From NCBI GenBank assembly GCA_963766715.1, contig CAVYBH010000008.1:224001-288000 (forward strand): a stretch of 64,000 nt of DNA, given 5' to 3'. The translations under genes were made by a program, and so were the position numbers. Every line of letters begins with the position of its first letter. Positions within the stretch are counted from its first letter, which is position 1. The notes below the pieces were generated by a model. It worked only from the letters and a program-made list of their open reading frames with translations, searched no databases and had not been told where the DNA came from. Source of the stretch: an uncultured delta proteobacterium. Lineage in GTDB: Bacteria > Myxococcota > Myxococcia > Myxococcales > Anaeromyxobacteraceae. Of this stretch, positions 31,697 through 36,581 are shown piece by piece.

Positions 31697-33533
<1,837 letters not shown>

Positions 33534-33557
33534 GCCGGGAGGCGGAGGTCACTCGAC

Positions 33558-34160
33558 GTGGACCTTCGGCTCTTCGTCGCCCTCGTCCCTCCCGAGCCGG
33601 TGCGGCGGGAGCTGGTCGCCTGGCAGGCCGACCTCCGCCGCCGCGCGGGGCAGCGGGCCGACGACCTTCGCTTCACGCCGGCCGACCGGCTCCACGTCAC
33701 GCTCCGGTTCCTCGGCGCGGTCCCCGAGGAGCGCGTGCCCGCCATCGGCGAGGCGGTGGCCGCGGCGGCGGCCCGGTCGCGGCCGCTCCTCCTCGAGGTG
33801 GCGGGAGCCGGCGGCTTCCCGAACGCGCGGCGCCCGCGCGTGGTGTGGCGGGGCGTGCGGGACGACGCGGGCGGGCTCGCCGCCCTGGCGGCGGACCTGG
33901 GGCGGAGGCTCGAGCCGCTGGGGTTCCCGGCGGAGGAGCGCCCGCTCGTGCCTCACTTCACCGTGGGTCGATCGCGCGGGGCGCACGGCGCGCCGGGGTT
34001 GTGCGAGGCCATCGCCGGCGCCTCCTCCGCGGCGGCCGTCCCGTGGCGTGCGACGGAGGTCTGCCTCTTCCGCTCCCACCTCGGGCGGGCGGGGGCGCGC
34101 CACGAGGTCCTGGCCCGGTTCCCGCTCGGTCGGGCCGGAGGCGACGAGGGAGCGAAATAG
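33558..34160 (+). CDS. thpR: RNA 2',3'-cyclic phosphodiesterase (2H family)
   Basis: RLFVAL; two HxT motifs ([15 protein letters not shown]); RPRVVW. Confidence 0.9.
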
Positions 34161-34178
34161 GCGGGCGACCTCTCCGTA
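34153..34178 (+). promoter_or_regulatory. ECF-sigma-type promoter, copy 1
   Basis: CGAAAT-N16-CGTA, resembling the TGAAAC-N16-CGTA ECF (SigW-like) consensus. Confidence 0.55.
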
Positions 34179-34202
34179 GGTGGATGCACAAGGAGAAACG
34201 CC

Positions 34203-34277
34203 ATGAGAAACCTCGCCGTCGTCGCCTTCGCCCTCGCCCTGCAGATCGGCTTCCTCGTCCAGATCGCGTCGCTGTAG
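34203..34277 (+). CDS. 24-aa hydrophobic microprotein, copy 1 ([24 protein letters not shown])
   Basis: AAGGAG RBS 7 nt upstream of the ATG; GC3-rich codons; single TM-length helix; duplicated. Confidence 0.75.
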
Positions 34278-34320
34278 GGGACCCGTCCGCCGCCTGGCCC
34301 GCTTCGGCGGGAACGCGGGC

Positions 34321-34346
34321 TGAAATAGGCGGACGACCTCCCCGTA
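34321..34346 (+). promoter_or_regulatory. ECF-sigma-type promoter, copy 2
   Basis: TGAAAT-N16-CGTA; differences from copy 1 fall in the spacer and the first base. Confidence 0.55.
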
Positions 34347-34370
34347 GGTGGATGCACAAGGAGAAACGCC

Positions 34371-34445
34371 ATGAGAAACCTCGCCGTCGTCGCCTTCGCC
34401 CTCGCCCTGCAGATCGGCTTCCTCGTCCAGATCGCCGCGCTCTAG
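34371..34445 (+). CDS. 24-aa hydrophobic microprotein, copy 2 ([24 protein letters not shown])
   Basis: AAGGAG RBS; stop codon overlaps the convergent exonuclease stop (CTAG). Confidence 0.75.
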
Positions 34446-35332
34446 CTCCCCTCCCCCGCCGTCCGGCGCCGCGTCGCCGTGAGCAGCCGGTCGGCCCCCA
34501 TCCGCGCGCACCATTCCTCGAAGCGGTCGCGCGGAATCCCGGTCCAGCGAAGCTCGTCGAACGACTCCTCCAGCGGAACGCTGGAGACGAGGGTGGCGAG
34601 CCGCCGGTAGAGCAGGACGTCCTCCTGCCCGGACGCGAGCGTCGCCGCCAGCGCCGCCGCGCCCCGGACCCCGGGCGGCCACGACCCGGCCTCGTGCGGG
34701 ATGGCCTCGAGGTGGACGTGGGCGGCGAGCAGGGCCGCCGCGGTCTTCTCCCCGAATCCGGGCAGCCCCGGGATCCCGTCGGCGGTGTCGCCCACCAGCG
34801 CGAGGAAGTCGGGCACGCTCTCCGGCCCGATCCCGCGCCGCGCGCGAAGCGCGGCCTCGTCGATGACCCGGCCGCGGATGCGGTCCACCTGCACCACCCG
34901 GGATCCCTCCAGGCACTGTCCCAGGTCCTTGTCCGGCGTGAGGATCCGGACCTGCTCCACCTGGTCCCGGAATCGCGCGGCGGCCGTGGCCAGCGCGTCG
35001 TCGGCCTCGAACTCCCGCATGGACCAGACGACCAGGCCGAGCGCGCGCGCCGCCTCCTCGGCGGCGTCGAACTGGGCGAGCAGCTCGGGCGGGACGCCCT
35101 CCTCGGTCTTGTAGCCGGGGAAGAGGTCGTTCCGGAAGGAGCGGATGGGGTTGTCGAAGGCGACGGCCACGTGGCTGACCGCCTCACCGGGGTCGTGGAG
35201 CAGGGCGAGGAGGTTCGTCGCCAGGCCGACCACCGCCTTCGCCTCGACCCCGGCGGGGGTCCGGTGCCCGGGCCGCTTCGTGAAGTGGGCCCGGAACAGC
35301 TCGAAGGTGCCGTCGACCAGGTGGAGGCGCAT
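34442..35332 (-). CDS. Standalone 5'-3' exonuclease/flap endonuclease (PolI N-terminal-like)
   Basis: [53 protein letters not shown]. Confidence 0.9.
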
Positions 35333-35371
35333 GCCGGGGCGTATCGGGGCGGGCCGGCCGGCGCCATTCGC

Positions 35372-35409
35372 TTGCGTTCGAACGGATGTTCAGTATCCTT
35401 CCGTTCAGG
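35372..35409 (+). promoter_or_regulatory. recA promoter with overlapping LexA (SOS) box
   Basis: TTGCGT-N16-TATCCT with CGAACGGATGTTC (35379-35391) in the spacer; extra GTTCAGG at 35403. Confidence 0.65.
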
Positions 35410-35504
35410 TGCGGTGTCGGACCCCCCTGCTATGAGGCGGGTCGTCGGAACGAACGAACGGACGTACGAGGGGGCGCGGCGCGCCCCGACAAGGAGCGGT
35501 GAAG

Positions 35505-36581
<1,077 letters not shown>

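Follow-up and report, generated by a model that had tools for sequence, protein, structure and literature searches.

Tandem units in the thpR-exonuclease interval

The window, a stretch of 64,000 nucleotides (nt) from the 4.2-Mb genome of an uncultured member of the Anaeromyxobacteraceae (G000), contains two tandem genes of only 24 codons between a thpR gene and a convergently oriented exonuclease gene, each located behind a target motif of an extracytoplasmic function (ECF) sigma factor that resembles SigW, and probably encoding a single-pass inner-membrane peptide whose synthesis would be driven by this stress sigma factor. A repeat search recovered two direct copies of 124 nt (34154–34277 and 34322–34445) with 119/124 identical positions (96%) and a spacing of 168 nt. 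On the plus strand, copy a consists of a promoter at 34153–34178 (-35 element CGAAAT at 34153–34158, a 16-nt spacer and -10 element CGTA at 34175–34178), a Shine-Dalgarno (SD) sequence AAGGAG at 34190–34195, positioned 7 nt 5' of the start codon, and the open reading frame (ORF) a at 34203–34277, which begins with ATG at 34203, runs for 24 codons, ends with TAG at 34275–34277 and scored 57.6 bits in the profile hidden Markov model (HMM) search. Copy b repeats this order on the same strand, with a promoter at 34321–34346 (TGAAAT at 34321–34326, a 16-nt spacer and CGTA at 34343–34346), AAGGAG at 34358–34363 and ORF b at 34371–34445, also of 24 codons plus TAG (53.5 bits); the promoters and SD elements of both copies were read from the sequence. 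The five differences between the copies are confined to the promoter spacer (G/A at 34165/34333 and T/C at 34173/34341) and to the last three codons, where those at 34268/34436 and 34274/34442 are synonymous and that at 34269/34437 exchanges Ser for Ala at residue 23. The C/T difference in the first -35 base (34153/34321) lies just outside the 124-nt unit. The units are separated by 44 nt (34278–34321, plus strand), found in the duplicated form only and including the hairpin CCCGC-TTCG-GCGGG at 34298–34311. This layout, as described in the original prediction, was confirmed in all its parts by the repeat search, the ORF list and the translations. The hairpin is a possible terminator, though it has no T run, and scanning of 33900–34700 on either strand found no canonical terminator. 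A hairpin follows copy a and many of the orthologues, while copy b is without it.

The sister genome G008 is collinear with the window across the region, and one 124-nt segment of it aligned to both window copies (window 32703–34277 with G008 positions 1–1575, and window 34322–35800 with G008 positions 1452–2942), leaving the 44-nt spacer without a counterpart. Contigs from other public metagenome runs joined copy a, the spacer and copy b in run X2 (197 nt, 34219–34416, two mismatches) and in run X3 (34170–34367, with a 9-nt deletion in the spacer), and a contig from run X1 extended from thpR across copy a to 34315. Because of the collinearity with G008 and the bridging contigs, the array is not an assembly artefact. 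It is present in more than one population, and the match of one ancestral-type segment to both copies, together with the agreeing independent sequences of X2 and X3, is that of a tandem segmental duplication. A 13-nt likeness between 34109–34121 and 34293–34305 may mean that the duplicated segment once extended into thpR, but it is indistinguishable from chance.

The frequency of such units was surveyed with a single IUPAC pattern derived from the ORF, a true unit being defined as the motif, a ribosome binding site (RBS) and an ORF of 24–25 codons. There were 21 true units among 75 matching stretches in metagenomes and 13 among 76 in the species-genome collection, the latter all in metagenome-assembled genomes titled Anaeromyxobacter, Anaeromyxobacteraceae or delta-/Deltaproteobacteria. 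None of the 34 had a second unit within 450 nt, in a survey from which the records of the window's own genome were possibly excluded. The proposed amplification as whole transcription units holds for the lineage of the window, as seen with G008, X2 and X3, and was not seen elsewhere; the tandem duplication is lineage-specific.

According to Pfam, the units are preceded on the plus strand by a SIS-domain gene (32589–33533) and thpR/LigT of the 2',5'-RNA-ligase family (33558–34160), and followed by a 5'-3' exonuclease gene on the minus strand (34442–35332) and by recA on the plus strand (35499–36581), which is given for context only. ORF b and the oppositely oriented exonuclease gene have stop codons that overlap in the tetranucleotide CTAG (34442–34445); in G008 the exonuclease gene seems to end about 10 nt further off than in the window. 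The neighbours named in the original prediction were therefore correct, but a functional tie of the peptide gene to DNA repair found no support: in the genus genomes G010, G006 and G001 thpR is directly followed by recA without a peptide gene, and most copies in the genus are located at other sites. We read the position as a permissive intergenic site with no functional link to repair. Placement after thpR recurs in two genera; the SIS-domain gene, thpR, the peptide gene and recA follow each other on the same strand in G018 (genus g6), and in G092 a RecA-like frame, read by eye, follows the peptide gene. Upstream of recA at 35371–35409 the window has CTTGCGTTCGAACGGATGTTCAGTATCCTTCCGTTCAGG, containing GAAC-N4-GTTC and two GTTCAG words, which is probably a LexA/SOS operator; a near-identical sequence precedes recA in G010, G006, G001 and G018.

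Promoter motif and the SigW-like sigma factor

Searching the complete G000 sequence with GAAATAGG-N12-14-CGTA gave seven strict matches, compared with none in each of ten simulated first-order Markov genomes. Two were the window units, and the third was located 34 nt upstream of a gene for a 219-amino acid (aa) Sigma70_r2 protein (G000:C12:564943–565599). Of the remaining four, three were found upstream of genes encoding a zinc-ribbon PspC-domain protein, a secreted DUF2807 protein and a repeat protein whose start is ambiguous, and the last is probably within a coding region. A looser match, GAAATACC-N13-CGTA with an RBS, was found at G000:C10:38026 (locus L068), 5' of a gene for a 65-aa membrane protein. 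This protein, very hydrophobic, two-helix-like and without a Pfam match, may be another small membrane member of the regulon. At G000:C11:228671 (L066:279–866) a promoter and RBS of the regulon type stand before an ATG whose frame differs from that of a long one rich in GC at third codon positions; the long frame encodes a repeat protein with a signal-like start and no Pfam match, an arrangement that may result from a frameshift, from an unusual start or from an error in the assembly.

NCBIfam matched the sigma factor best to SigW, with a score of 141.6 bits where the equivalog cut-off is 209; by its sequence it is therefore classed as SigW-like and not as a SigW equivalog. Its gene is followed by genes for a zf-HC2 anti-sigma factor, a single-pass protein, and for an STN-domain membrane protein. 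Orthologues of the sigma factor were searched in 41 genomes and matched in 31; 29 loci were examined, with a truncated one in G002 (L088) set aside along with three matches that came without a locus. In 27 of the 29, [CT]GAAATA-N15/16-CGTA was present just upstream of the sigma gene, and the two loci without it (G039 and G036) are among the three most distant ones examined (46–47% identity). On this sequence pattern the autoregulation footprint of the sigma factor spans the order.

The same motif precedes every peptide homologue found, 17/17 in one set and 13/13 in further HMM matches. Both window copies have the (C/T)GAAAT element, the 16-nt spacing and the CGTA of promoters of the ECF group 4 SigW type, shared with the sigma/anti-sigma operon of the same genome. 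Bacillus subtilis SigW promoters are given as TGAAAC and CGTA (PMC5758882), and the SigW regulon includes yvlABCD and pspA and consists mostly of envelope and membrane proteins (PMC3498285). The occurrence of the motif at the sigma operon and in 27/29 orthologous loci, together with its likeness to SigW promoters, therefore substantiates the ECF-type promoter that had been proposed from the window sequence and makes it possible to name G000:C12:564943–565599 as the probable cognate sigma factor of the peptide units. Transcription would start some 6–8 nt past CGTA, near 34185 and 34353, giving an unstructured leader of about 18 nt. No published work on small proteins or on this ECF regulon in Anaeromyxobacter was found in the literature searched, which lacked most subscription journals.

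Conservation and copy history of the peptide family

The peptide starts with Met-Arg/Lys-Asn, followed by about 20 hydrophobic residues, and is predicted to be an N-in single-pass membrane peptide; the positive N-terminus, the hydrophobic stretch and the conserved frame and stop are those of a small single-pass membrane protein. F9, F17, Q20, A22 and L24 do not vary in the ORF alignment, Q14 and G16 are almost constant, and the stripe of small residues A12-x3-G16-x3-Q20 suggests a surface suited for helix-helix packing.

The unit was recovered by DNA search of 41 genomes in all 13 genomes of the genus, with 82–92% nucleotide identity. When these 13 orthologues and the two window copies were aligned (15 rows), the -35 and -10 boxes and CAAGGAGAAAC were invariant and the ATG and ORF were conserved, while the promoter spacer and the sequence past the stop varied freely. 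An HMM built from 17 ORFs (A1) matched 27 of 92 Anaeromyxobacteraceae genomes, including 13/13 of the genus; in the order sample it matched 16 of the 68 genomes of the family and none of the 132 genomes of the order's other eight families. Conservation of ORF and promoter among relatives, on which the original prediction depended, was thus verified, and within this sample it is confined to the family. The 13 further HMM matches, of short and long forms, all had an RBS together with the motif. Among 28 distinct ORF sequences the length was 24 codons in 23, 25 in three, and 27 and 29 in the other two, which means that all indels preserve the frame; the stop invariably follows Q-[LI]-A-x-L. Short forms in other genera have 25 aa (G018 and G092), 26 aa (G021), 27 aa (G016) and 29 aa (G078).

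Long forms of 46–83 aa with a homologous N-terminal helix are present in Anaeromyxobacter and other genera. They carry an Ala/Pro-rich tail of 20–55 residues, and in mid-helix they have Glu in place of the Gln or Pro of the short forms. The 51-aa form is a protein of A. dehalogenans 2CP-1 (P0001), annotated as conserved hypothetical and without a Pfam domain, which places the family in the Anaeromyxobacteraceae. With this relative as query, the protein collection returned nine matches, all hypothetical and all longer relatives, and the ESM Atlas returned only unnamed clusters (0.84–0.85) that gave no lead. No Pfam or NCBIfam family fitted the peptide, even at E values up to 10, the best ones (0.07–0.14) being at chance level. 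The peptide genes are therefore likely to represent a family of small, ECF-regulated membrane proteins in Anaeromyxobacteraceae that has not been described before, as anticipated, judging by their occurrence in 13/13 genus genomes and in further genera and by the lack of a Pfam or NCBIfam match. The original caveat that the homologues might be much longer proteins applies in part: the 46–83-aa relatives do share the N-terminal helix and the promoter, but they are still small, and the forms of 24–29 aa are independently conserved. Long forms also occur in loose tandem pairs on one strand, about 200–430 nt apart, with members of 83 and 46 aa in G018 (L016, contig C71) and of 51 and 70 aa in G085 (L056).

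In most of the genus, the short gene is located between a beta-carbonic-anhydrase-like gene and a gene for a zinc-ribbon membrane protein with its own promoter (locus A). A second family member of 62–64 aa is present, together with the short form, in at least seven genomes of the genus. It has the same promoter and a homologous helix, with Glu and Asn at positions that are Gln in the short form, and its gene is followed by one for a 45-aa protein and by lgt. G008 has a copy at locus A and a single copy after thpR (locus B). In G000, locus A (G000:C11:171208–173380, about 2.1 kb) is occupied by ORFs of 259, 139 and 225 aa with no peptide gene, the long form is absent upstream of the 45-aa gene and lgt, and only the two tandem copies were found. 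We infer that G000 lost locus A and the 63-aa paralogue and holds locus B twice. Since its other family members were lost, the duplication may keep or restore a two-gene dose. The carbonic-anhydrase-like gene of G000 aligned in two frames, indicating a frameshift or an assembly error near C11:170937–170939.

The 45-aa protein has a C-terminal helix, and its gene is immediately 5' of lgt both in relatives (L024–L031) and in G000 (G000:C10:87624–88478). In the relatives its ATG lies a few bases past the stop of the 63-aa gene (TAATGG..CCATG), while in G000 the gene stands alone behind a sigma-70-like TTGGGC-N17-GATAAT. A third type of site (L023, G003:C70:63833–63929) has a further copy of the short gene with its promoter, which begins 3' of what by eye resembles a NuoK frame and is truncated where the contig ends. 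A role as leader peptide or attenuator was considered and rejected: what lies downstream varies between the zinc-ribbon gene with its own promoter, recA, a contig end after nuoK and the convergent exonuclease gene, and such a cis role is unlikely because the contexts differ between the loci and copy b runs into a convergent gene.

Proposed role, alternatives and known systems

Our preferred explanation, with a probability of roughly 0.6, is that the two tandem genes encode a single-pass inner-membrane peptide driven by the SigW-like stress sigma factor. Under envelope or membrane stress the anti-sigma factor would let go of the sigma factor, which would drive each unit from about 34185 and 34353, and the open leader of about 18 nt would allow efficient translation. 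The N-in helix would then insert into the inner membrane and pack either against itself or against some other membrane protein; packing against a partner helix and self-association are the ways in which characterised small membrane proteins work. The peptide would thus serve as an effector of a Psp/SigW-like membrane-stress response and not as a toxin, and the duplication would double its dose.

Several observations weigh against this explanation. The ratio of nonsynonymous to synonymous differences per site (pN/pS, Nei-Gojobori) was 0.51 with 16 and 0.55 with 23 peptide sequences as compared to 0.22 for the sigma gene (11 sequences), which indicates modest constraint; nearly every replacement exchanged Ile, Val, Leu or Ala for one another. 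At synonymous sites the conservation was unusually high (pS of 0.13–0.16 in the peptide ORF and 0.33 in the sigma gene), which strong codon bias in an ORF rich in Phe, Ile and Gln may explain, or else a constraint at the RNA level. G000 is 84.6% complete, so further copies could be missing, and the idea of dose compensation depends on one genome pair. The RNA libraries bear on the explanation in both directions: contigs covering the unit were found in two soil metatranscriptome runs of one study (34169–34249 with no mismatches at a depth of 20, and 34169–34276 with two mismatches), and their depths were comparable to those of recA contigs at ≥95% likeness. As these contigs are assembled sequences whose left ends lie at 34169 or further upstream, ahead of the predicted start, they may stem from DNA carry-over or read-through, and they are compatible with transcription without demonstrating either transcription or its start site. 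At the same likeness no RNA contigs covered thpR or the exonuclease gene, which is uninformative since the soil organisms may be relatives in which the gene has other neighbours, and contig depth gives no ranking of genes.

The same properties were weighed for other roles, among which a feedback function in the ECF pathway appears unlikely. The helix would bind the zf-HC2 anti-sigma factor or compete for the site-2 intramembrane protease by which the sigma factor would be released, with the copy number setting the gain. The motif of the sigma factor at every peptide homologue, the single-pass nature of the anti-sigma factor and the restriction of the family's conservation to the helix all accord with such feedback, as does the degradation of small membrane proteins reported for Escherichia coli RseP (PMC10470546). 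However, the sequence indicates no specific partner, and sigma factor and motif are present in other families of the order while the peptide HMM matches this family only, so the pathway seems to run without the peptide. A broader form of this proposal, in which the 24-residue helix would be the smallest dedicated ECF output, tuning sigma release, and gain or loss of copies (1–3 loci per genome) would reset the envelope-stress gain, is equally doubtful. A type I toxin, i.e. a small pore-forming peptide whose synthesis an antisense or neighbouring small RNA (sRNA) would restrain and whose genes are arranged in tandem like ldr, ibs and zor, is improbable, and the likeness to such toxins drawn in the original prediction found no support. 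The short hydrophobic peptide with polar residues in its helix, the tandem and the stress-type regulation would fit a toxin. The mRNAs of type I toxins usually hide the SD sequence, but here a consensus SD sits in a leader of about 18 nt, and the RNA folds into less structure than its shuffles do, with no structured leader. Conservation ends at the stop and at the -35 box, leaving no conserved antisense or flanking RNA gene, and no sigma-70-like promoter was found on either strand in 33900–34700 (the scan covered the sigma-70 consensus only). In addition, no NCBIfam toxin model matched at E values up to 10, and the genus has kept the gene by vertical descent as part of its core, at a syntenic site, with a single copy in 21/21 metagenome and 13/13 collection units.

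Slightly less credible still is an ECF-dependent sRNA or dual-function RNA with the ORF-like core as its base-pairing region. Enterobacterial ECF regulons include sRNAs, the unit is of about 90–130 nt with a hairpin after copy a and many orthologues, and its synonymous sites are 2–2.5 times more conserved than those of the sigma gene. Yet the predicted transcript (34185–34320) folded worse than 197 of 200 shuffles (z +1.95), and the Rfam scan gave no match in 34100–34500, the sole match in 33000–36000 being a chance one to mir-138 (E 0.29); both results make a structured RNA unlikely. Copy b lacks the hairpin, a consensus SD is located at the ideal distance from the ATG, frame and stop survive indels of 3, 9 and 15 nt, and other genera retain the peptide despite more diverged DNA. 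Finally, it is very improbable that the genes are functionless, decaying remnants, namely truncated N-termini of the 46–83-aa paralogue. Homology of the helix to the N-terminus is indeed seen in the 63-aa and 51-aa forms, whose polar residues occupy matching positions, and the gene content of the family turns over between genomes. But all four signals (promoter, RBS, start and stop) are undamaged in 13/13 genus genomes, in four genomes of other genera and in the 21 metagenome and 13 collection units, every one of which has its stop at the same position behind Q-[LI]-A-x-L, and short and long forms occur together in at least seven genus genomes.

The preferred explanation, a membrane peptide driven by the SigW-like sigma factor, offers a concrete example, open to testing, of how a membrane protein this small may belong to the envelope-stress response of a bacterium that is not a model organism. 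Genes of 24 codons escape gene callers, and the protein collection searched held only the longer hypothetical relatives, while comparative data alone were enough to link such a gene to a named regulator. The cultured A. dehalogenans, which has a longer relative of 51–52 aa with the same motif, is open to genetic work. From the way in which short, long, single and tandem forms replace one another it can be seen how such genes may come about, through cutting back to the helix, and how their dose may be tuned.

The most similar regulatory system is the SigW regulon of B. subtilis. The architecture GAAA(T)-N16-CGTA resembles TGAAAC-N16-CGTA, the best NCBIfam match of the sigma factor is SigW, and the sigma/anti-sigma operon has the mark of autoregulation, as in Bacillus. 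PspC-domain and DUF2807 genes share the motif here, and the Bacillus regulon has yvlABCD, pspA-ydjGHI and many small membrane proteins, YvlC being a PspC-domain protein and YvlB a DUF2807-like one. In contrast to Bacillus, the -35 element ends with T and not with C, the sigma factor remains below the equivalog score (141.6 against 209 bits), the host is a Gram-negative myxobacterium, the anti-sigma factor is of the zf-HC2 type and followed by an STN-domain protein, and Pfam/NCBIfam profile searches revealed no known Bacillus homologue of the 24-aa peptide. The type I toxins TisB, DinQ, Ibs and Ldr are small and hydrophobic, with polar residues in the helix and occasional tandems, TisB and DinQ belonging to DNA-damage contexts. 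The peptide resembles them in size, hydrophobicity, polar helix residues and tandem arrangement, but it differs in being encoded by a syntenic core gene of the genus with no antisense RNA or structured leader found and no model match. The enterobacterial MgrB, MgtS, AcrZ and PmrR are single-helix proteins of less than 50 aa with stress-regulated promoters that bind larger membrane proteins. With these the peptide has in common the single helix, its own stress-type promoter and the proposed partner-binding mode, while it is unrelated to them in sequence, has only 24 aa with no extramembrane tail and is ECF-sigma-driven where theirs is two-component control. The Anaeromyxobacter hypothetical proteins of 46–83 aa, such as P0001, are true relatives with a homologous N-terminal helix and the same ECF motif and RBS, distinguished by their Ala/Pro-rich tail and mid-helix Glu.

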